A DNA stretch of 36,533 nucleotides from Patescibacteria group bacterium (GTDB taxonomy: Bacteria; Patescibacteriota; Gracilibacteria; UBA1369). The notes below the pieces were generated by a model. That model worked only from the letters and a program-made list of their open reading frames with translations, was not told the DNA's origin and did no database searches. The stretch is taken from the NCBI GenBank assembly GCA_018825335.1, contig JAHJEW010000098.1, positions 1-36,533 of the forward strand, given 5' to 3'. The position numbers and the translations under genes are program-made. This document shows positions 25,266 through 35,161 of the stretch, piece after piece. Position 1 is the stretch's first letter. Each line of letters opens with the position of its first letter.

Positions 25266-25625
25266 ATGATAAAAGATTTACAAAAACCCGCCACCAAGGG
25301 TGATTTAATGCTTACCAAAAAAGAACTGCGTAAGGAGATGAGTGATTTGAGTAAAGGGCTGCGCGGGGAGATGACCGACATGCGCGGGGAGATTGGAAAT
25401 ATTAAAGTGGACATTCTGGATATCAGGGGAGAGTTGCGGGATATTAGGGCTAATATGTATACAAAGGCGGACCACATGAAGTTTATGGAATGGATGGATG
25501 AGGCGATGACGGAATTGCGGGACACGCGGGATGAAAGGAGGCTATCGGAGTCGCATATGCTGCGCATGGATGACACGCTTGGCGATCATGAAAAGCGGAT
25601 TGTCAGGCTGGAGAAGGCGGCGTAG
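25266..25625 (+). CDS. small coiled-coil protein with heptad repeats
   Basis: PATKGDL followed by LRKEMSD/LRGEMTD/MRGEIGN heptads and HEKRIVRLE. ATG 25266 is preceded by AAGGA. Confidence 0.65.
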   Translation: MIKDLQKPATKGDLMLTKKELRKEMSDLSKGLRGEMTDMRGEIGNIKVDILDIRGELRDIRANMYTKADHMKFMEWMDEAMTELRDTRDERRLSESHMLRMDDTLGDHEKRIVRLEKAA

Positions 25626-25673
25626 GGGGCATGGCGAAAATAGGCATTTTGTTTGTGCCCGGATATTTTAAAA

Positions 25674-25699
25674 AGCGCACTTCGTTTTGCTGCGTGCGT
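25674..25699 (+). repeat. REP-like 26-bp hairpin repeat, copy 1
   Basis: AGCGCACTTCGTTTTGCTGCGTGCGT, 22/26 identical to the copy at 32221. Confidence 0.65.
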
Positions 25700-25739
25700 G
25701 GTTGAAAGAGGAAAAACTCACTTACGAATGGTGAGGGTG

Positions 25740-25772
25740 GCGGACCTGGTTCTTTGTGGGAACCAGGTCCGC
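25740..25772 (-). terminator. 13-bp GC hairpin downstream of the cassette 1 gene (no U-tract)
   Basis: GCGGACCTGGTTC-N7-GAACCAGGTCCGC. A second CCCCGG/CCGGGG hairpin lies near 25793-25814. Confidence 0.55.
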
Positions 25773-25828
25773 TCCTCGGTTGTGGCGCTCGACCCCCGGT
25801 TTTTAGGCCGGGGGGAGCGCAGGGGGGG

Positions 25829-26659
25829 TCAGTTGGTCCCGAGGGGGATCACGCTGACCGTTGCTGCGCCGCCGCCGAAGGCGACGGCGCAGCCCGACGC
25901 CGACCCGAAGTCGGCGTAGGTGGGGGCTCCGGCCGCCCCCGAGAAGGTGGCATGGCCGGTGTCCCAGGACACCGCGCCAACCACCGCACCGACGACCTTG
26001 ACGGTCTCGGCGCACTTTCCGGCGGCGAACACCACGGATGCGACCGTGGTGTTCGCCGTGGTGGACATCTTTAGGGTTTGGCACCCCCAAAGTCCACTGG
26101 TTGCCCCGTCGGCGTAGGCGTCGCTGACGGCGAGGTAGGCATTGGGATCGTTCGAGGCCGGGGGGCCGTTGAACGAGCACAGTTGGTAGTTGGTGACAGT
26201 GCCACCCGTGCTACCGCCGGTGCCGCCAGTGCCGGTGCTGCCCGTGTTGCAGGCGAACTGCGCCGTGGTGTGCTCGCACACCATCTCGCAGATGCCCGTC
26301 GAGGTCTCGAAGACCTCGCAACCGACGCCCGGGGCGCCCTGGGCGCCCGCGGCACCCGGCGGGAGCTTGATGCTCTCGCCGTTTTCGCATGCCACGACGA
26401 TGGTTCCATCGTCGAGCTGCGTTGCCGTGGACACCACACAGGTGCCCTTGGCGACGTCGGTGCTGGACAGGACGTCGCCGTCCTCGTCCCTGCACACGCG
26501 CATCGAATTGCCATTCTCGTCCTGCTCGTACGAGCAGGACGAGAAGTCGTCGCCGCAGCCCGCGAGGGCCGCAACGACGAGCAGGAGGGTGGTGATGAGG
26601 GCCGCCTTGGCGGCCCTCGCCTTTTTTGCCCCGCAGGGGGGGCGGGTGGCATTCGCCAT
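25829..26659 (-). CDS. GC-rich Cys-containing lipoprotein with short collagen-like and Gly/Thr-rich linkers
   Basis: AAGGAG-N9-ATG (MANATRPP), LAGC lipobox, PGAAGAQGAPG, GSTGTGGTGGSTGG. The first 99 codons of the listed ORF are probably leader. Confidence 0.78.
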   Translation of the reverse strand: MANATRPPCGAKKARAAKAALITTLLLVVAALAGCGDDFSSCSYEQDENGNSMRVCRDEDGDVLSSTDVAKGTCVVSTATQLDDGTIVVACENGESIKLPPGAAGAQGAPGVGCEVFETSTGICEMVCEHTTAQFACNTGSTGTGGTGGSTGGTVTNYQLCSFNGPPASNDPNAYLAVSDAYADGATSGLWGCQTLKMSTTANTTVASVVFAAGKCAETVKVVGAVVGAVSWDTGHATFSGAAGAPTYADFGSASGCAVAFGGGAATVSVIPLGTN

Positions 26660-26949
26660 TGTCTCAATCTCCTTCCCCTGGGAGGGGGAACACCGCGCAC
26701 TATGCGCAGTGGCGCCCCTCCGTTCGGGGCACGCAGCTACCAGGGATGATCGGGTCGGACGGCTGCTAGAGCGCGTCGGGTCCGGATCCGTGGCAGGTGT
26801 GTGCCCCGAGGAGGGAAAGGGTTTGGGAGTGTGGCTTATCGCCACAAAAAAGGGAAATTGTGTTTGCTTTCGCAAACTTCGCTGCCAGTTTTTATTAGCG
26901 TGCTGGCGCACGCGGGATCTCGCTTGCGCAAAATCTGTTCGTAAGTGAG

Positions 26950-26961
26950 TTTTCAAAGGTC
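26950..26961 (-). promoter_or_regulatory. boxA-like motif, cassette 1 leader
   Basis: GACCTTTGAAAA on the minus strand, directly after a CGCCC/GGGCG hairpin and overlapping the inverted-repeat arm. Confidence 0.55.
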
Positions 26962-27123
26962 AATGCGCCCGAAGGATTTGACTCCGAAAGGGCGACTTTT
27001 CTTATTTATCCACGTTTTGCTGCTCATAAAAAATGGTAAAGCTTTATGGGACGCGGCATAGGCCGTGGCCCGATAAAACCTTATTGATCCGTTTTTTTGA
27101 GCATGTGAGTAAACAAGGAGAGG

Positions 27124-27152
27124 AATGTATCATATTCCCCTATTTCTGTCAA
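27124..27152 (-). promoter_or_regulatory. sigma70 promoter driving cassette 1
   Basis: TTGACA-N17-TACATT with extended -10 TG. Confidence 0.72.
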
Positions 27153-27531
27153 GCCACATCATTGTTGGATGATGAGCCGGGCAGCTGCCTGTTTAAATGC
27201 GAGGCAGGCGGGAATATTACAATGATTTTTGAGGATAAGTCAAAATATTGTTTTAGGTTTGTCAAAAGGTTTTTGCAGGTAGGGATCGTTTGCCAAAATT
27301 TTTTGCATGGGAAAGGGCCGCTTCATGTTATGAAGCGGCCCATCGGCGCACCTTGTTGTCCCGAATTAACGGGGCGTTAAGGGCGCCATTCCCGATCTTT
27401 TTTGCTTTGGCTTACCTCCTTTCCGGCGGGCGAGGGAGCTTTCACTCCCCCGCCCCATGCTCACGGTTGCCGTCCGCGTGGTCTTTTTTCTCACAGCTGG
27501 CTGGGCTGTAAGTCACCCGGTAGCGGTAGTG

Positions 27532-30500
27532 CTACCAGGTGATACGGATGGCGTAGTACGTGCATCCGTTCAGTGAGACGGTGTACGTGGTGTTGACCAC
27601 GTTTACCGTCGCGGGGGTGTACCCGCTCCCCTGCACCTCGAGGGTGCTGCCGCCCCAGGTGGGGGGCAGGGAGTAGGGCGAGCACCGCCGCTCCACGGAC
27701 ACCGGTGCCACCGACGAGGTGAACACCAAGAGTCCGTTGTTCTCCCAGGCCATTGCCCGGTCGCCGGCGGCGTAGGTGCCGCTGACGTTTCCGGACGAGC
27801 AGTTCCAGTCATCGGAAGTGCTCGCCGCGGGGTCGATCGTCGTTCCTCCGGAGAAGAACTTGACCGACTTGTAGCAAGAGTCACCGATAATGGTGACGCC
27901 CGCCGGGCCCTGCGGCTGCTGTTGCAGCGCGCAGATGCCCCCGACGCAGGTCTCACCTACGAGGCATGCGTTGCCGCACGCTCCGCAGTTGGCCTCGTCG
28001 CTCGCGAGGTCGGCGCAGGCGCCCCCGCAATTGGTGTACCCTTGCGAGCACGCCGTTTTGCAGGCGCCCTGGTCGCAGACCAGGCCTTGCCCACAGACCG
28101 CGCAGGCGGGTCCGCAGGCCAATGGATCTTGCATGATGCTTTCGCACCATAGATCCAGGTCGCAGTCCAGCGTGCCTTGGGAGCACGACAGGACACACGA
28201 CCCGCCCGAGCAGACTTGGTCGTTGACGCATGCGTTGCCGCACGCGCCGCAGTTCTGCTCGTCGCTCGACAGGTAGACGCAACTGCCGGAGCAGTTGGTC
28301 TGGTTTAGACCGCACGTGCTCTTGCACGCGCCGTCCGTGCACACCTGCCCTTGCGGACAGATGGCGCAACCCGGACCGCAGGCGGTCGGGTCACTCAGGA
28401 TATGCTCGCAGACGAAGTCTGCATCGCAGTCCTGTTCGCCTTGCTTGCACGACACCACGCAGGTGCCGCCCGAGCAAAGCTGGTCTCCGATGCATGCGTT
28501 TCCGCATGCACCACAGTTGTCCTCGTCCGAGGACACGTAGACGCAACTGCCGGAGCAGTTGGTCTGGTTCGGACCGCACGTGCTCTTGCACGCGCCGTCC
28601 GTGCACACCTGCCCTTGCGGACAGATGGCGCAACCCGGACCGCAGGCGGTCGGGTCGCTTTGGATCTGCTCGCAGACATTGTCTGTGTCGCAGTCCATCA
28701 TCTGCTCCGGACACGAGAGCACGCAGCTCCCGCCGGAACAGATCTGGTCTCCGACGCATGCGTTGCCGCACGCGCCGCAGTTGTCCTCGTCGGAGGACAG
28801 GTAGACGCAACTGTTGGAACAGTTGGTCTGCCCTGTGGCGCACACTGACTTGCAGGCGCCACTCGAGCACACCTGCCCCTGCGGGCAGATGGCGCAACCC
28901 GGACCGCAGGCGGTCGGGTCGCTTTGGATCTGCTCGCAGACATTGTCTGTGTCGCAGTCCATCATCTGCTCCGGACACGAGAGCACGCAGCTCCCGCCGG
29001 AACAGACCTGATCTCCGACGCATACGTTGCCGCACGCGCCGCAGTTCAGGGGGTCGCTGCCCAAGTGTACGCATGCGAGTCCGCATACGCTTAGCCCTTG
29101 AGAGCAACCATAGGTGCAGGTGCCGTTGTCGCACACCTGCCCCGGTCCGCACACATTGCAGCCGAGGCCGCAATGTAGCGGATCCGACCAGATGTAGTCA
29201 CACACTTGGTCGTTGCCGCAGTCGAGCGTGCCGGTGCTGCAATGCAGCTGGCACGTCCCGCCGAGGCACTGCTGGTCGCCGACACATTGAGTGCCGCACG
29301 ACCCGCAATTGGCTTCGTCGGTCTTGAAGTCGACGCAGCCGCCATTGCACAGCGACATGCCTTGTGAGCAGTTCGCCACGCATTGGCTCTTCTGGCAGAC
29401 CTGTCCCTGCGCGCAAACGGCGCAGAGAGGTCCGCAGTGCGACGACGTCGAAGTGATGTCGTCGCACAGGTTGTCCGCGTCGCAATCGGCCTGCCCCGTG
29501 GGACAGGCGAGCGCGCAGACGCTGGCCAGACACTGCTGGTCGCCCGGGCATACCGTGCCGCAGGCTCCGCAGTTGGCCTCGTCGGAGATTGTGTTTACAC
29601 ACTGACCTCCGCACTCCGTCTGCCCTTGCGAACAGACGGTCTTGCAGGCACCGAGGTCGCAGACCTCATTGACTGCGCAGTCCGTACAGGACGGCCCGCA
29701 GAACGCTGGATCCTGCATGATGTCATCGCAGATCCAGTCGTTGTCGCAATCCTTGGTGCCTTGCGGGCAGAAGAGCCCGCAGATTCCAAGGCTGCACTCC
29801 TGCTGGCCCGTGCACGCGGTGGTGCAGGAGCCGCAGGCCACCTCGGACGACTGCGTGTTGACGCAGCCGTTGAGGTTGGCGCAGTACTGGAAACCGCTTA
29901 CGCAGTTATCCAGGCATGTGCCGTTTTGACACACCTGCGTGCCGGAGCATTGGGCGCACAGAGGCCCGCAATGCGACCCGGACGAGGTAGTGTCGATGCA
30001 CTGGCCGTTCTTGTTACAGTCGGCCGTGCCCTGCGCGCAGCTGACGGGCTCACAGAACCCGCCAACGCACGCCTCCGTGATAGCGCATTTGCTACCACAA
30101 CCTCCGCAGTTGAGCTTGTCGCTCATGACTGCGGCACAGAAGTCCTGGCCGCCGCTCTGGCAGACCATTTCTCCTTCTGCGCAGTCCAGCACGCAGGCGC
30201 TGAACGCGCACGTCTCCCCTCCGGCGCAGGCGTTTCCGCATGCGCCGCAGTGGAGGGGGTCAGTGGCGAGATCCGCGCATGCGTTGCCGCACGCCGTCTC
30301 GCCCGACTTACAGTTCGAGTAGCAGGTGCCTCCCGAGCAAAACTCATTGAGGCCGCATGCGTTTCCGCACTGGCCGCAATGAGCGGGACTGCTAAGGAGG
30401 TTTGCGCAACCTCCATTACAGTCCACTGTCCCCGAGGGACAGTTGTCCGCGCACTCGCCCGAGGCGCAGACCTGCCCATCCGCGCACGGATCACAGTCCG

Positions 30501-30807
30501 TGCCGCAGTGGGCGACATTGGACCAGATGTCTACGCAGGACTCTGATCCGTCGCACACGGCGGTGCCGAGGGCGCAGTTCGCGCCGCCCGATCCGCCGGT
30601 GCCGCCGGCAGCGTTTCCGCCACCGCCGGTCTGGGACCCGCCGTTTCCGGTGGAGCCCCCGGTGGCCGTTGAGCCACCACCACATGGGGGGCGACTGCCA
30701 TCGAGGCATGCAACCTCCCCGGGAGCGACCTCCGCCTGGGGGTCGCTCCAACATCCCGCCGTCAGCGCGAAAATCGCGCAGGCGGCGGCCACTTTTTGCC
30801 ATTTCAT
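27532..30807 (-). CDS. giant Cys-rich repeat lipoprotein (MXAN_6577-like/Stig1-like modules)
   Basis: AAAGGAG SD before MKWQK, TAGC lipobox, Gly-rich linker, 20 tandem 8-Cys modules (D..NCGACGNAC...C..G.C) and a unique C-terminal domain. Confidence 0.85.
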   Translation of the reverse strand: MKWQKVAAACAIFALTAGCWSDPQAEVAPGEVACLDGSRPPCGGGSTATGGSTGNGGSQTGGGGNAAGGTGGSGGANCALGTAVCDGSESCVDIWSNVAHCGTDCDPCADGQVCASGECADNCPSGTVDCNGGCANLLSSPAHCGQCGNACGLNEFCSGGTCYSNCKSGETACGNACADLATDPLHCGACGNACAGGETCAFSACVLDCAEGEMVCQSGGQDFCAAVMSDKLNCGGCGSKCAITEACVGGFCEPVSCAQGTADCNKNGQCIDTTSSGSHCGPLCAQCSGTQVCQNGTCLDNCVSGFQYCANLNGCVNTQSSEVACGSCTTACTGQQECSLGICGLFCPQGTKDCDNDWICDDIMQDPAFCGPSCTDCAVNEVCDLGACKTVCSQGQTECGGQCVNTISDEANCGACGTVCPGDQQCLASVCALACPTGQADCDADNLCDDITSTSSHCGPLCAVCAQGQVCQKSQCVANCSQGMSLCNGGCVDFKTDEANCGSCGTQCVGDQQCLGGTCQLHCSTGTLDCGNDQVCDYIWSDPLHCGLGCNVCGPGQVCDNGTCTYGCSQGLSVCGLACVHLGSDPLNCGACGNVCVGDQVCSGGSCVLSCPEQMMDCDTDNVCEQIQSDPTACGPGCAICPQGQVCSSGACKSVCATGQTNCSNSCVYLSSDEDNCGACGNACVGDQICSGGSCVLSCPEQMMDCDTDNVCEQIQSDPTACGPGCAICPQGQVCTDGACKSTCGPNQTNCSGSCVYVSSDEDNCGACGNACIGDQLCSGGTCVVSCKQGEQDCDADFVCEHILSDPTACGPGCAICPQGQVCTDGACKSTCGLNQTNCSGSCVYLSSDEQNCGACGNACVNDQVCSGGSCVLSCSQGTLDCDLDLWCESIMQDPLACGPACAVCGQGLVCDQGACKTACSQGYTNCGGACADLASDEANCGACGNACLVGETCVGGICALQQQPQGPAGVTIIGDSCYKSVKFFSGGTTIDPAASTSDDWNCSSGNVSGTYAAGDRAMAWENNGLLVFTSSVAPVSVERRCSPYSLPPTWGGSTLEVQGSGYTPATVNVVNTTYTVSLNGCTYYAIRITW
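27922..30576 (-). repeat. intragenic tandem repeat: 20 modules, mostly alternating 45+43 aa (264-bp period)
   Basis: Near-identical DNA blocks 264 bp apart, e.g. 28295 vs 28559 and 28680 vs 28944. Confidence 0.9.
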
Positions 30808-30881
30808 GGCATTCTCCTTTCGTTGTGGCACAGGGGGCGGCCCGGCGAAATCCGGATATCGCCCCCCTTAGCCGCCTGCAC

Positions 30882-31970
30882 TCAGATGCGCAAGCCCACC
30901 ATGATGGGCTTGAACTGGGGCTCGATGCCCCAACTCTTGTCCTGGCCGTCGTAGCCAGGCACCCTGTTATACGGCGTGGCGTTGACCACACCGCAAACCC
31001 CTCCCCCGATGGAGAGGTTCGGAGCCGGGTGGAACAGGACGTTCGCACACGGCTCGACCACGAACACGTAGTTCGTGGCCTGGTTCGCGAACTCGACCGT
31101 CTTGGTCGAGCTCTGAGAAAGGAACGTGTCCGGGTAGGACACGACCTCGAGACCGAGCTGGGCTCCGAGGTTTCCCTCGAGCCAGCTCAGGGGGGCCCAC
31201 GAAACGTAGGGTCCCGCGGTGAAGGAGAACTTCTCCTCCACCGAGTCTGCGTTTACTGGCTGGTTTCCGTCGAACGTCCACACGTTGGTGTGGACGTAGT
31301 TCATCGTCGCGCCCAGCTGGGCGAAGCGGTGAAGGCGGACGAGGATGTCCGCCCCGACTCCGACCGGCACGTTGGTCGCGTGCTGGTCGTTGAGCCCCAG
31401 AAGGGGGCTCATGAGGAACTGCGCCCGCTGCGACAGCGGGCTCCAGCCCTTGAGCTGGCGACCGTAGTCGTCCAGCTTCTTGTCGACGTCCTTGAGGACG
31501 TCGACCTTGGCTTCCGCGACCTCCTCGTGGGTCGCGATCTCCGCCGGAGGCGGAGGAGCCGGCAGGACCGTGAGGTCCCACGCGGCCACCAGCTCGTTCC
31601 CGTACCTGACAGTCAGGTTCGGAAACGTTCCGGCCTGCGCCGTCCAGGCGATGCCGAACTGGGCCACACCATGGAGGTGTGGCTCGTCGGTGTAGGACTT
31701 GCAGCCCAACACCTCCTCGCCCAGGCCCTGCGGCCTGATGAGGTTCTCCTCCGTCCAGGTGGAGCACTCCAACTGGGCGATGAAGAGCACGGAGAGGCGC
31801 TTCCCCTCCGTGGCCACGGCCTTGCGGCCGCTCCTAGAGTCAATCCCCTCCAAGGAGGGGACAAAGAAGGGCACGTCGGCCTTTGCCGACGCCGCAGGTT
31901 GACCTTTTGCCCATCCCGCGACCATCAAGGTCGCGGCGACGAGCGCCCAACTCGTGAAGCGTCGCATCAT
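30882..31970 (-). CDS. GC-rich secreted protein with a probable C-terminal outer-membrane beta-barrel
   Basis: Signal peptide (MMRRFTSWALVAATLMVAGWAKG), PAPPPPA linker, short helix, then alternating strands (VGVGADIL, AQLGATMNY, FSFTAGPYVSW, LSIGGGV) ending IMVGLRI. Purine-rich SD GAGGAAAGGA. Confidence 0.62.
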   Translation of the reverse strand: MMRRFTSWALVAATLMVAGWAKGQPAASAKADVPFFVPSLEGIDSRSGRKAVATEGKRLSVLFIAQLECSTWTEENLIRPQGLGEEVLGCKSYTDEPHLHGVAQFGIAWTAQAGTFPNLTVRYGNELVAAWDLTVLPAPPPPAEIATHEEVAEAKVDVLKDVDKKLDDYGRQLKGWSPLSQRAQFLMSPLLGLNDQHATNVPVGVGADILVRLHRFAQLGATMNYVHTNVWTFDGNQPVNADSVEEKFSFTAGPYVSWAPLSWLEGNLGAQLGLEVVSYPDTFLSQSSTKTVEFANQATNYVFVVEPCANVLFHPAPNLSIGGGVCGVVNATPYNRVPGYDGQDKSWGIEPQFKPIMVGLRI

Positions 31971-32157
31971 TGCTTAGCTTCCTTTCCTCTTGCTGGTCGC
32001 GGTTTCGGGCCCGGAGGGGCCATAACGCACCATGCGTTATAGTCCCCACCGCGCCGCGGGACTCACTCCATCTTTTTGTATCGGCCAATAAAAAAAATCG
32101 GCATACTCAAAAAAACGGGGCGAGTCCCACGGCAAAAAAAATATGATTCTAAAATAT

Positions 32158-32246
32158 AGCGCACTTTGCTCCGCTTCGTGCGTGGGGCGTTTTTCGCTTC
32201 TCTCACTTCGTTCGCTCCACAGCGCACTTCGCTCCGCTTCGTGCGT
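32158..32246 (+). repeat. two direct copies of the REP-like 26-bp hairpin repeat
   Basis: AGCGCACTTYGCTCCGCTTCGTGCGT at 32158-32183 and 32221-32246 (25/26 identical); stem GCAC/GTGC. Confidence 0.8.
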
Positions 32247-32257
32247 AGTAAGCCAAA

Positions 32258-32269
32258 TTGTTAAAGATC
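32258..32269 (-). promoter_or_regulatory. boxA-like motif, cassette 2 leader
   Basis: GATCTTTAACAA(TTT) on the minus strand, close to rrn boxA GCTCTTTAACAA. It lies within the inverted-repeat arm. Confidence 0.6.
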
Positions 32270-32403
32270 GCCAACTCCACCTTCTATCGCAGTGGCCGGT
32301 CGTCAAAGCATGCCTTTCCGCCCTCCGCTGGTGCGGATGGCTCCAAGTGCACTGATTTTGGCCCAATTTCCACTAGACAGGCAGGATTAAAGAATTGGAT
32401 GAG

Positions 32404-32432
32404 AGTTTAACTATATTGCGGACTTTTGTCAA
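32404..32432 (-). promoter_or_regulatory. sigma70 promoter driving cassette 2
   Basis: TTGACA-N17-TAAACT. Confidence 0.75.
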
Positions 32433-32575
32433 CCTTTTTACCGCTTTGCAGCGGTTTTGGAAAGATCGGCAAAAGCCGCAATCAGTAAACGTTAAATTTA
32501 ATGCTTCTTTTGGGCTTCCATTACAGGGCCGGCGGCGTAATAATGGCATCGGACATTATCACTAACAGCAAAGAA

Positions 32576-33706
32576 ATGAAAAAACGGCCGCGGATTGTTA
32601 TTTGCGGGAACTACGGAGCCACGAATCTTGGCGACGAAGCGATTCTGGACGGGATTCTTTCGCTGGTCAGAAGATCCATCCCAAACGCGGACATTACGGT
32701 TTTAGGCGCCAATCCGGCCGAGACGGCGGATCTTCACGGAGTAAAGAGCCTTTTTTTGCTTCCGGCGGGGGCGCGTTCGCTTTGGCGCGGGGTTTCGGGC
32801 GGCACTATTTGGCGCACTCTGGACGCAATTCGCAAGGCTGATTTGTTTATTCTTGGCGGCGGAGGGCTTTTTACGGATGAGAAGTTTATGGCTGTTTTGA
32901 TCTGGTCACTGCAGGCGCGGATCGCGCGGCTTTTTAAAGTGCCGATTTTCTGCCTGGGGCAGAGCGTAGGGCCTCTTCGGACTTTTTTCGGGCGGATGAT
33001 GACGGCGGGGGTTTTTAAACATTCTGCGGAAATTACCGTGCGCGATGAAGCTTCCCGGGATTTGCTTGTTCGTCTTGGGATCGATGACGCGCTTGTGCTG
33101 GCCGATCCGGCGTTTGTCCTTGCCGCGCCCGAGCCGCTGCCCGAGCGCACAGAGCCTTACGTGGTTTTGTCGGTGCGTCCGTGGAAAATTATGGGCGGCG
33201 AGAGCTTTCGGGATAAGCTTTTGTGTCAGGTTTTAGCGAAATTCGTTGATCGTCTCTGGATGGAGAATGGCCTAAAGACCATTATGGTGCCTTTTCAGGT
33301 CATGGTCGATAACGACGCGAACGAGCTGGAGCGCATTTATGATCTTCTGGAAGACAAAAAGGCCGCGGAGATTTTCTCCTACAGCAGCGATTACAAGAAG
33401 GTTATGGAGCTTATAGCGCGTTCAACGGCCGTGGTTGGGATGAGGCTTCACTCTCTCATTTTCGCGTCGATTTGCCACACGCCGTTTCTGGCGCTATCGT
33501 ACAGCGAAAAAGTGCGAAGTTTTTGCGCGCAGGTCGGCATGGAGGACTTTATTCTTGGTCTTGATGAAGTGGACCTTGCTGCGCTTATGGTCAGGTTTGA
33601 ACGAATTTTGTCTGAACGGGATGCGCTGGTTTTGCGGCTGGACAACAGGGTTTTGCATTTGCGGGCAATGGCGCTTGAGCATGAGGGGATTTTAGAGAAG
33701 TTTTAA
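32576..33706 (+). CDS. csaB: polysaccharide pyruvyl transferase (CsaB-like)
   Basis: GNYGATNLGDEAIL, GGGGLFTD, GQSVGP, VRDEAS, ADPAF, GMRLHSLI, LSYSEKV. Start uncertain (32501, 32543 or 32576). Confidence 0.8.
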   Translation: MKKRPRIVICGNYGATNLGDEAILDGILSLVRRSIPNADITVLGANPAETADLHGVKSLFLLPAGARSLWRGVSGGTIWRTLDAIRKADLFILGGGGLFTDEKFMAVLIWSLQARIARLFKVPIFCLGQSVGPLRTFFGRMMTAGVFKHSAEITVRDEASRDLLVRLGIDDALVLADPAFVLAAPEPLPERTEPYVVLSVRPWKIMGGESFRDKLLCQVLAKFVDRLWMENGLKTIMVPFQVMVDNDANELERIYDLLEDKKAAEIFSYSSDYKKVMELIARSTAVVGMRLHSLIFASICHTPFLALSYSEKVRSFCAQVGMEDFILGLDEVDLAALMVRFERILSERDALVLRLDNRVLHLRAMALEHEGILEKF

Positions 33707-33760
33707 TAGGTTTTTATTTTTTGATAATAATGTTCCGTTACAATGTCGGTACATTTTTGG

Positions 33761-33789
33761 TTGATTAATTTATTATATAAGTTTACTAT
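33761..33789 (+). promoter_or_regulatory. promoter of the TA operon
   Basis: TTGATT-N17-TACTAT. An imperfect palindrome AATGTtCCG..CGGtACATT at 33729-33755 may be an operator. Confidence 0.5.
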
Positions 33790-33794
33790 ACTAT

Positions 33795-34082
33795 ATGAAA
33801 GTATTACTAAGTAAACCTTCAATGGCTACAATTTCTTTTAAGGCCGACGATAGTTTTAAGAAAAAACTTGATGCTCTTGCGGAGAAAAAGGGCATTAATA
33901 CTTCCGCTTTTATCAAGCTGATTCTTACTAAAGAGGTCGGCTGTGAGCTTGCAGAGATGACTGAAAACGGGTTAACGGTTGCGGAGGAGCTGGAAATTTT
34001 GGACTCTGTGAAAAACGACAAGGTTCTTGGACCTTTCTCAAATACCAATGATCTATTGAATGCTTTGAAAGATTCAAAATGA
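33795..34082 (+). CDS. RHH-type antitoxin (RelB/DinJ-like)
   Basis: ATISFKAD..FKKKL..LA...GIN.S.FI ribbon-helix-helix pattern, GPFSNT.DL C-terminus, ATGA overlap with the toxin. Alternative start at 33822. Confidence 0.75.
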   Translation: MKVLLSKPSMATISFKADDSFKKKLDALAEKKGINTSAFIKLILTKEVGCELAEMTENGLTVAEELEILDSVKNDKVLGPFSNTNDLLNALKDSK

Positions 34083-34336
34083 GGATTTTTTTCACGTCGG
34101 GCTTTCAGAAAAAATTTATTAAGCTGCCACTGAATATTCAGGAGCAATTTGGCGTCAGAATTGATCTTTTTATAGAGGACTCATCGCATCCATCCCTAAA
34201 GGTTCATCCACTGAAGGGAAATCTGGCGGGACTAAGGGCTTTTTCGGTTAGCGGTGATTGTCGTGTAATTTATCGTTTATTGGATCGCGATAGTATTGAG
34301 CTAATAAGCATTGGCACACATAGTCAGATTTATTGA
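34079..34336 (+). CDS. RelE/YafQ-family mRNA interferase toxin
   Basis: F.K...KL, HPSLKVHPLKG, FSV.GD.RVIY, IGTHSQIY. Confidence 0.85.
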   Translation: MRIFFTSGFQKKFIKLPLNIQEQFGVRIDLFIEDSSHPSLKVHPLKGNLAGLRAFSVSGDCRVIYRLLDRDSIELISIGTHSQIY

Positions 34337-34570
34337 TAGGTTTTAATGGCCCGGGCCAAGTACACCAATGGTGGCAAGCCATAAAACGGTTGTCGTTCGG
34401 CGAATTTTCAGTTTTGATTTCGTTTGACTTTTGCGCCCTATTCTTGTAATGCTATCTATCCGTCACTATTGTGGCGACGATTTTTCGCGGGTCGAAGGGT
34501 CGTTGCCCGGTGGCAGCGATCTTTGATAGCCCGCATTTTGGGGCCGCCAAGGCGGCCCATTGGAGGTAGT

Positions 34571-35131
34571 ATGTTTCGTTTTTCCCATTTGTTTCGGGTC
34601 GCGTTGGCGACCCTTGCCCTGTGCCTTCTGGGCACAGGGTGCGCGGACGCCACGCCGGTCGCGAAGGCGCCGGCGGTCGCGCCGCCGACGCCCCCCGTGA
34701 AGACGGAGGGCAGGCCTGCATTACCACCCGCCCCCGCGGTCGTGCTGGCGCAGGTCAAGTCATCACCGGGCAACATGCCCGATGACATATACTCGGACAC
34801 GCTGATCCGGGTGGTGGCGTGGGCAGCTGTCGGCCCGCAGAACCTGCAGGTCGATGCGGTCACCGACCTGCCGTTGGGCGGCACAATCGTGCTGCTCAGC
34901 GAGGATCCGAACGTCGTCCTCACAACGGACGACGTCAAGCTGGCGGAGGGGCCGATGCGCCTCCGCCAGACCCAGAGCGGGGTTCAGGCGATCCTGAACC
35001 CCACCGAGGCGGAGCTGAAGAAGCTCCGCGGTGGCGAGCGGTTGCCGCTCGTCTTCCTTTTGGGAGACACCCTCTCCCCCATGGGGGAGAAGAAGTTCCC
35101 CCTCCACGTGGGGCTTGCGCGGCTGGACTGA
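34571..35131 (+). CDS. GC-rich lipoprotein with Pro/Ala-rich linker
   Basis: GGAGGT SD before ATG 34571, LLGTGC lipobox, APAVAPPTPP linker, third codon positions strongly G/C. Confidence 0.78.
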   Translation: MFRFSHLFRVALATLALCLLGTGCADATPVAKAPAVAPPTPPVKTEGRPALPPAPAVVLAQVKSSPGNMPDDIYSDTLIRVVAWAAVGPQNLQVDAVTDLPLGGTIVLLSEDPNVVLTTDDVKLAEGPMRLRQTQSGVQAILNPTEAELKKLRGGERLPLVFLLGDTLSPMGEKKFPLHVGLARLD

Positions 35132-35161
35132 GAAGTCCGGCCGCCGCCCCGCGACTGGAAA

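Follow-up and report, generated by a model that had tools for sequence, protein, structure and literature searches.

The DNA analysed in this work (the window) is the whole 36.5-kb contig C107 of a bacterial genome coded G000; related genomes carry codes of the same type (G010, G012, G015 etc.). The G000 assembly comprises 1.15 Mb in 134 contigs, with a guanine plus cytosine (GC) content of 45.5% and a completeness of 96%. Three sharp blocks of 63-67% GC stand out in the window from flanks of 40-50% GC, and the genes located there code for predicted secreted proteins or lipoproteins. The leaders of these three cassettes contain short sequences that resemble the boxA elements of ribosomal RNA (rRNA) operons (rrn). 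Two of the three closely match rrn boxA forms of the same family and are conserved in orthologous leaders, and they are probably boxA elements in function.

The GC-rich cassettes and their leaders

The gene of cassette 1 (25829..26659, minus strand) codes for a predicted lipoprotein of 276 amino acids (aa), has a GC content of 0.69 overall and 0.87 at third codon positions (GC3), and gave no Pfam match. Cassette 2, also on the minus strand, begins with a gene (30882..31970; GC 0.65, GC3 0.87) for a 362-aa secreted orphan protein. Its second gene (27532..30810), which is probably on one transcript with the first, codes for a 1092-aa Cys-rich lipoprotein with eight Stig1-like repeats (PF04885, E 4e-53). 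The gene of cassette 3 (34571..35131, plus strand; GC 0.67) codes for a predicted lipoprotein of 186 aa. The cassette junctions are real and no assembly artefacts because they are bridged, with 0-1 differences, by contigs of an independent study (run X3) spanning positions 31878-32607, 33487-34640 and 27215-28125.

The preliminary description of this DNA had placed a boxA-like 12-mer on the sense strand of each leader, and all three were found exactly there: GACCTTTGAAAA at 26961-26950 (minus strand) in cassette 1, GATCTTTAACAA at 32269-32258 (minus strand) in cassette 2, and GATCTTTGATAG at 34518-34529 (plus strand) in cassette 3. In cassette 1 the conserved block runs on as CTCACTTACGA to approximately position 26939. 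The cassette 3 string, an unproven candidate, starts 53 nucleotides (nt) and ends 42 nt before the ATG. A pattern merged from the three motifs, GAYCTTTRAHAR, was found 13 times in the genome when both strands were counted; DNA of at least 0.61 GC follows the three copies in the window and no others.

Cassettes 1 and 2 have long untranslated leaders of ~430-460 nt counted from the predicted transcription start. The predicted promoters of both are of the sigma-70 consensus type and are conserved in the orthologous leaders. The predicted promoter of cassette 1 (27152-27124, minus strand) consists of TTGACA, a 17-nt spacer and TACATT with a TG before the -10 box; it agrees with the consensus in 10 of 12 positions and would start transcription at ~27117. 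That of cassette 2 (32432-32404, minus strand; TTGACA, 17-nt spacer, TAAACT; predicted start ~32397) is divergent from a pyruvyl-transferase gene at 32501-33706. Its -35 and -10 boxes and the CATC of the start region are invariant in four genomes, and the start-proximal CCTTGTTTACTCTCA of cassette 1 is common to the leaders of G029, G027 and G012. From the predicted transcription start it is ~156 nt to the motif in cassette 1 and ~128 nt in cassette 2, and from the motif another ~300 nt to the ATG. The promoter of cassette 3 is weak. The mean probability of being unpaired was higher for the motif than for its context in cassette 1 (0.69 vs 0.52) and in cassette 2 (0.73 vs 0.44), and lower in cassette 3 (0.32 vs 0.47).

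Two other readings of the motifs were rejected. The cassette 2-type motif contains TTAACA, TTGACA or TTTACA and could be taken for a -35 box, but no -10 box was present at a consistent distance of 16-18 nt in G000, G015, G029 and G012. A reading as recombination junctions was rejected on account of the variable distance between motif and start codon (170-380 nt) and of the conserved promoter upstream of the motif.

Similarity to rRNA boxA elements and conservation of the motifs

The 16S gene of G000 lies at C47:3920. Its leader promoter is TTGACT-17-TACAAT, and a boxA, GTTCTTTAACAT, is present at C47:3817, ~83 nt after the predicted start. Of the 18 16S loci of the family that were examined, 12 have a leader boxA of the form G[AT]TCTTTAACAT (also written G[AT]TCTTTAACA), seven with GAT and five with GTT, followed by YCAGNNTGTARTAGA; in the other six either no boxA was found within 200 nt or the 5' end of the 16S gene was missing. 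A second boxA precedes the 23S gene. In the five genomes examined its distance from the gene is ~90-140 nt, it is immediately preceded by a GGGGTGTGTGC..CACACTCC hairpin and a U-run, and it has the form GACCTTTGAAAA in G015 and G029, GTTCTTTAACAATTGGGCC in G019 and G033, and GCTCATTGAAAA in G000. This hairpin is strong and its U-run 8-10 nt long, and the structure directly in front of the boxA resembles an intrinsic terminator (G000 C47:6560-6606; loci L323, L325, L321 and L322).

The comparison with the rrn boxA of the genome, which the preliminary description had proposed as a check of the claimed kinship, came out in its favour: the boxA of G000 is related, and the 16S and 23S forms of its relatives match cassettes 2 and 1, respectively, almost letter for letter. 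The cassette 2 motif (GATCTTTAACAATTTGGC) is of the 16S-leader type, with 11 of 12 nt identical to the 16S boxA of the relatives (GATCTTTAACAT), 10 of 12 to that of G000 itself, and, over a longer stretch, 17 of 20 to the 23S form found in G019 and G033. The cassette 1 motif (GACCTTTGAAAAC) is of the 23S-spacer type: it is identical in 13 of 13 nt to the 23S boxA of G029 and in 9 of 12 to that of G000. Outside the motif no similarity between rrn leaders and cassette leaders was detected.

Conservation was measured by counting invariant columns in alignments of orthologous leaders that were anchored on the motif and included 30 nt on each flank. In the cassette 2-type leaders of G000, G029, G015, G012 and G010, which represent four genera, 9 of the 12 motif columns were invariant, compared with 4/30 upstream and 1/30 downstream; these leaders have the promoter, the start region and the boxA block in common and little else. 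In the cassette 1-type leaders (G000, G029, G027 and G012) the corresponding values were 11/12 for the motif, 1/30 upstream and 9/30 downstream. For cassette 3, among the 36 family genomes the protein search found only the gene itself (none in the 35 relatives), and the search with the leader DNA yielded no orthologous leader, only a dispersed repeat at 34347-34397 (see below).

Homologues of the 362-aa protein are rare. They were found, G000 included, in 7 of 205 genomes of the order with an alignment of four proteins as query and in 4 of 61 genomes in the search of relatives, and only two proteins were matched in a search of 5.8 billion. The homologous gene is situated in a GC-rich island within low-GC DNA in at least six of the seven genomes and is divergent from the same pyruvyl-transferase gene in four of them; we conclude that this arrangement is syntenic and of old date and was not imported recently. 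For the cassette 1 protein, weak homologues were detected in G029, G027 and G012, all encoded within GC-rich islands.

It is conceivable that the conserved blocks are sites for some other factor, such as a leader-specific RNA-binding protein, a small RNA, an RNase or a DNA-binding regulator, and that they resemble boxA by coincidence or convergence. Indeed, the block of cassette 1 exceeds a boxA in length (GACCTTTGAAAWCTC..TA, with the invariant downstream columns mentioned above), the leaders hold further conserved and covarying hairpins, and binding of NusB-S10 to the motifs is a prediction. We nevertheless consider this explanation unlikely, since the two motifs correspond to two different rrn boxA forms, both from the same family, the same sequence skeleton precedes unrelated GC-island genes on contigs C118, C105 and C79 (see below), the motifs are not palindromic, and their interpretation as -35 boxes fails for want of a -10 box at consistent spacing.

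GC-rich islands and leader hairpins

The enrichment of boxA-like sites ahead of GC-rich genes was estimated with a score matrix to which only the rrn boxAs of the family, in their five distinct forms, contributed. For each GC-island gene, the highest-scoring site in the 450 nt upstream was taken, and its score was compared with those of 184 control leaders having intergenic gaps of at least 150 nt. The cassette 2 leader scored 17.1 bits, a value reached by none of the 184 controls, followed by the leaders of C118 (16.3 bits, 1/184), cassette 1 (14.5 bits, 1/184), C105 (13.2 bits, 2/184) and C79 (12.9 bits, 2/184). The C42 leader (3.8 bits, 166/184) has no boxA-like site. The cassette 3 leader, at 9.4 bits, was equalled by 23 of the controls, which is chance level. 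Thus, five of the seven GC-island leaders of G000 were above the 95th percentile of the controls (binomial P 6e-6; Mann-Whitney P 9e-4). A simpler count of matches in at least 9 of 11 positions gave five in 3150 nt of leader, compared with 1.34 expected from intergenic DNA.

When the whole G000 genome was scanned, five of 153 sites of at least 12 bits were located at a boundary from low to high GC, where ~0.7 would be expected (such boundaries account for 355 of 80,138 sampled positions, or 0.44%); this is an approximately 7-fold enrichment. The cassette regions of the relatives (89 kb) displayed the same pattern, with new boundary cases in G026 (GACCTTTGACAC and GCCCTTTGAAAG) and G010 (GACCATTGAAAA). 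The enrichment ahead of GC-rich cassettes that the preliminary description had made a touchstone of its proposal is thus present. Its assignment of all three motifs to boxA is well supported for cassettes 1 and 2, on the strength of rrn match, conservation and enrichment, and unsupported for cassette 3, whose motif is most likely a chance match.

The cassette 3 result raises the question whether all three motifs could be chance matches or inert remnants, for instance pieces of rrn leaders or spacers that were copied together with a promoter and have no present function. Most of the 153 high-scoring sites lie inside genes, which would be in line with chance. Against this, the motifs of cassettes 1 and 2 are islands of invariance in leaders otherwise diverged across three to four genera, sites of this kind are concentrated before GC islands, and the resemblance to rrn leaders ends with the motif. 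We regard the explanation as very improbable for these two motifs.

Apart from the three islands of the window (25600-26950, 27400-32100 and 34500-35150), G000 has further islands at C79:1-750, C118:1025-1850, C105:10550-11000 and C42:9825-10750; these sharp islands of 63-69% GC in a host of 45% GC hold genes for small secreted, membrane or orphan proteins. Homologues of island genes in other genera share 25-36% identity, are likewise GC-rich and are partly syntenic; the high GC content has therefore been maintained for long and does not reflect fresh import. Outside the islands, GATCTTTGACAA at C46:52410 (plus strand) lies 231 nt upstream of a gene of normal composition (GC 0.47) for a 1629-aa protein with a signal peptide, which may be a boxA-led gene.

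Each motif had been described as preceded by a GC hairpin, in the boxB-boxA order of rrn leaders. The named stems exist: CGCCC/GGGCG in cassette 1 (26994-26990 and 26970-26966, minus strand), CCAC/GTGG in cassette 2 (32295-32292 and 32280-32277, minus strand) and TGCC/GGCA in cassette 3 (34504-34507 and 34512-34515, plus strand). The first is part of an imperfect hairpin (26966..26994) with an inner GGA/TCC, which ends 4 nt before the motif. To assess these structures, the minimum free energy (MFE) of the 60 nt upstream of the motif was expressed as a z-score relative to shuffled sequences. The value was -1.0 for cassette 1 (MFE -12.3) and +0.25 for cassette 2, where the CCAC/GTGG stem is not part of the MFE fold. 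Only cassette 3 gave a low score (-27.6 kcal/mol, z -3.0), and its actual structure is a hairpin of ~15 bp (34461..34517, plus strand), far larger than the named 4-bp stem; it could just as well terminate transcription of the RelE/ParE-like gene pair upstream. Of nine leaders folded from relatives, the seven orthologues of cassettes 1 and 2 had z-scores between -1.0 and +0.6, and two G026 leaders had -2.4 and -5.4. These values, together with the single invariant column among the 30 upstream of the cassette 1 motif, show that a hairpin before the motif is not a conserved property of the cassette leaders. The boxB-boxA order does not hold for them as a leader feature; a clear succession of hairpin and boxA is found in the 23S spacers of the family.

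Other hairpins are located downstream of the motifs. The 3' part of the cassette 1 leader contains two (26693..26732, minus strand; GCGCA..TGCGC and GCCCC..GGGGC) just before the ribosome-binding site. A 3' hairpin is common to the orthologous cassette 1 leaders. Comparison with G027 revealed compensatory changes (ctGCGCatagtGCGCgg vs ctACACatagtGTGTag, i.e. GCGC/GCGC vs ACAC/GTGT), and a similar ACGCAtggTGCGT hairpin is present in the cassette 2 leader. In both leaders (26693-26712 and 32026-32044) the short hairpin has the form RCGCA-YR-GTGCGY, is followed by CCCCTCC and directly precedes the ribosome-binding site; it may be a translation-control structure.

Between boxA and the start codon, the cassette 2 leader has a terminator-like hairpin with a U-rich tail (32151..32183, minus strand; -8.2 kcal/mol, tail TATATTTT) and a second, weak one (32130-32115, minus strand). 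Such U-tailed hairpins occurred between boxA and ATG in four of 12 leaders, at six sites in total, compared with 2.47 ± 1.5 in shuffled sequences; three of 100 shuffles reached six. A hairpin unit of ~26 nt, GCGCACTTYGCTCCGCTTCGTGCGT, is present in three copies, two in the cassette 2 leader (32159-32185 and 32222-32247) and one on the 3' side of cassette 1 (25675-25700). When read on the sense strand, one of the cassette 2 copies has a U-rich tail behind it and was scored as terminator-like.

Possible role of the motifs and neighbouring features

G000 encodes NusA, NusB (whose presence the preliminary description had asked to be checked), NusG, S10 and a putative SuhB-family protein, identified as such by its membership in the inositol-monophosphatase family. 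Rho, on the other hand, was not detected in G000 with the models Rho_RNA_bind and TIGR00767, and Rho_RNA_bind gave no match when applied to 36 genomes of the family, including three assembled as single contigs with 97-100% completeness. We therefore reject the rationale offered earlier, according to which poorly translated transcripts would need antitermination, since that is the logic of Rho-dependent polarity. The premise of poor translation is itself weakly supported: the codon usage of the cassette genes is mildly atypical (codon-adaptation z between -0.1 and -3.3, three of eight genes being in the lowest 1.5% of 990 genes), and transfer RNAs with C34 anticodons for G-ending codons are present in G000.

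The explanation that we favour, with a probability of roughly 0.6, is that the motifs of cassettes 1 and 2 act as boxA elements: NusB-S10 would be loaded there and RNA polymerase brought into the processive form known from rrn operons. Binding of NusB-S10 and its effect on elongation are what we infer; the observations behind them are the sequence identity to rrn boxAs, the conservation, the position and strand of the motifs, their enrichment and the set of Nus genes. Cassette 2 would offer the 16S-leader form and cassette 1 the 23S-spacer form as predicted NusB-S10 loading sites on the nascent RNA. The bound NusB-S10 would join NusG, NusA and the SuhB-family protein on RNA polymerase, and the resulting rrn-type complex would resist pausing and termination. 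It could then carry transcription through the structured leader, including the terminator-like hairpins of cassette 2, and across 0.8-4.4 kb of GC-rich template prone to hairpins. With Rho apparently missing from the lineage, such a complex would act on hairpin pausing, on intrinsic termination or on the folding of RNA during transcription, and a role in preventing pausing or in bypassing intrinsic terminators seems more likely.

Several observations weigh against this interpretation. The best-documented role of boxA complexes, the one directed against Rho, cannot apply in a family without a Rho match. The association is not universal, as illustrated by the C42 island and by cassette 3, and in G026 and G159, where the homologues of the 362-aa gene are more distant, the leaders of these homologues gave no match to the motif skeleton. 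The seven GC islands were defined post hoc on data already seen, and related genomes are not independent samples. Across the 36 genomes the exact 16S-form pattern was found 97 times, a modest excess over the 70 matches of the reversed control. Among 30 exact 16S-form matches (one per genome) seven were rrn sites and none was located ahead of a sharp GC island, so that the cassette sites, as a rule, are variants that deviate from the strict 16S form. The leader terminators, considered as targets of boxA-dependent read-through, are suggestive only. Apart from these points, public genome contigs were scanned with GCGATCTTTNACAAN{2,3}GGC and metagenome contigs with GACCTTTGAAAWCTC, and none of the matches listed was leader-like after filtering for GC context and flanks.

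In passages of PMC13753749 the B. subtilis rrn boxA consensus is given as AUGAUCUUUGAAA, with NusB binding demonstrated by nuclear magnetic resonance, and the E. coli boxA as UGCUCUUUAACA; the rrn antitermination complex is described there as interfering with intrinsic termination as well. The cassette sites resemble the rrn boxAs of E. coli, where the antitermination complex consists of NusB-S10, NusA, NusG, SuhB and S4, and the boxA-like element of B. subtilis rrn operons: they have the core sequence of the family's own 16S and 23S boxAs and lie on the sense strand soon after a strong promoter. The complete set of Nus genes is encoded, and the family's 23S spacers have the hairpin followed by boxA. 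They differ in that they precede protein-coding genes with ribosome-binding sites, in a lineage without Rho. Neither a boxC-like partner nor a leader-trailer helix was identified in the cassette leaders.

boxA elements outside rRNA operons are already known. Those of suhB and other mRNAs are treated in PMC5725501, where sections on gamma-proteobacteria give the consensus GYTCTTTAANA and describe regulation of mRNAs, among them suhB, rpsJ and a ParE-like toxin gene, by boxA in the leader of a protein gene. The cassette 2 motif departs from this gamma-proteobacterial consensus at a single position (A for Y at position 2). The search described there was confined to the 50 nt next to the start codon, and suhB is repressed by a translation block together with Rho (PMC5725501); in contrast, the cassette sites lie ~300 nt upstream, in an organism that appears to be Rho-less and before GC-rich accessory genes.

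The suhB precedent suggests another possibility, namely that the motifs are real NusB-S10 sites that repress, the Nus complex blocking translation initiation, in which case cassette expression would be inversely tied to the supply of free Nus factors. Repression of this kind, including that of the toxin gene, is documented in the sections of PMC5725501 cited above, and the cassette 3 motif, ending 42 nt before the ATG, is within the range used there. However, repression of suhB takes place near the start codon, and its final step is due to Rho, which had no match in the family; the two well-supported motifs are far upstream of the ATG, and the near-start motif is the one at chance level. Repression thus seems distinctly unlikely. 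The antitermination role of boxA that we prefer has a parallel in CRISPR (clustered regularly interspaced short palindromic repeats) arrays, upstream of which boxA is mentioned in PMC13753749. At such arrays, too, an rrn signal outside rRNA operons carries the polymerase through a long, structured transcript that is poorly translated or untranslated. The array transcripts are non-coding and the role of boxA is reportedly directed against Rho, whereas the cassettes are protein-coding.

Leader signals that make polymerase resistant to termination in long accessory or surface-structure operons include the lambda nut sites (boxA and boxB, with the N protein), RfaH/ops, LoaP and the EAR RNA. In the cassettes, by comparison, the element is the housekeeping boxA itself; neither an N-like protein nor a specialised NusG paralogue turned up in G000, where no search was aimed at either. 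Among the papers listed in our literature searches, none was concerned with boxA elements in candidate-phyla bacteria or ahead of protein-coding cassettes rich in GC.

Control by boxA and Nus factors has been documented for rRNA, a few enterobacterial mRNAs and CRISPR arrays, and its usual explanation is that it counters Rho. Here, both rrn boxA forms of a lineage are conserved before compositionally aberrant protein-coding cassettes in a family without a Rho match. If these sites bind NusB-S10, they would point to a Rho-independent task of Nus factors on mRNAs (prevention of pausing, bypass of intrinsic terminators or RNA folding), provide a handle on the expression of the odd GC-rich surface-protein genes of ultra-small bacteria with reduced genomes, and serve as a simple sequence marker for finding such cassettes. 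A more far-reaching proposal, which we put forward as speculative and rather doubtful, is that the GC-rich genes for secreted or surface proteins of Rho-less candidate-phyla bacteria form a dedicated Nus/boxA regulon transcribed in the manner of rRNA, with both rrn boxA forms reused in long structured leaders whose terminators only a boxA-modified polymerase could pass. These accessory genes of persistently high GC would in that case depend for their expression on free NusB and S10, i.e. on the state of ribosome synthesis, and the upkeep and expression, across genera, of genes so unlike their host in composition would be explained.

The DNA directly upstream of the cassette 3 leader (33795-34336) contains, as read from the translations, a small antitoxin-like gene and a RelE/ParE-like toxin gene. 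It is followed, at 34347-34397, by the dispersed 45-50-nt repeat mentioned above, which begins with the palindrome TGGCCCGGGCCA and is present in six copies of 82-93% identity, mostly just after genes; the other copies in G000 are at C27:1803, C64:4754, C120:7148, C28:352-402 (minus strand) and C12:8180. The repeat has no tie to GC islands, and contigs of several runs break at 34345-34347. Minor contigs from what is likely the source sample have a diverged form of the spacer that separates cassette 1 from cassette 2 (27080-27450). They also contain joints that skip 153-763 nt inside the Cys-rich repeat gene (27990-28770), which suggests strain variation in the number of repeats.

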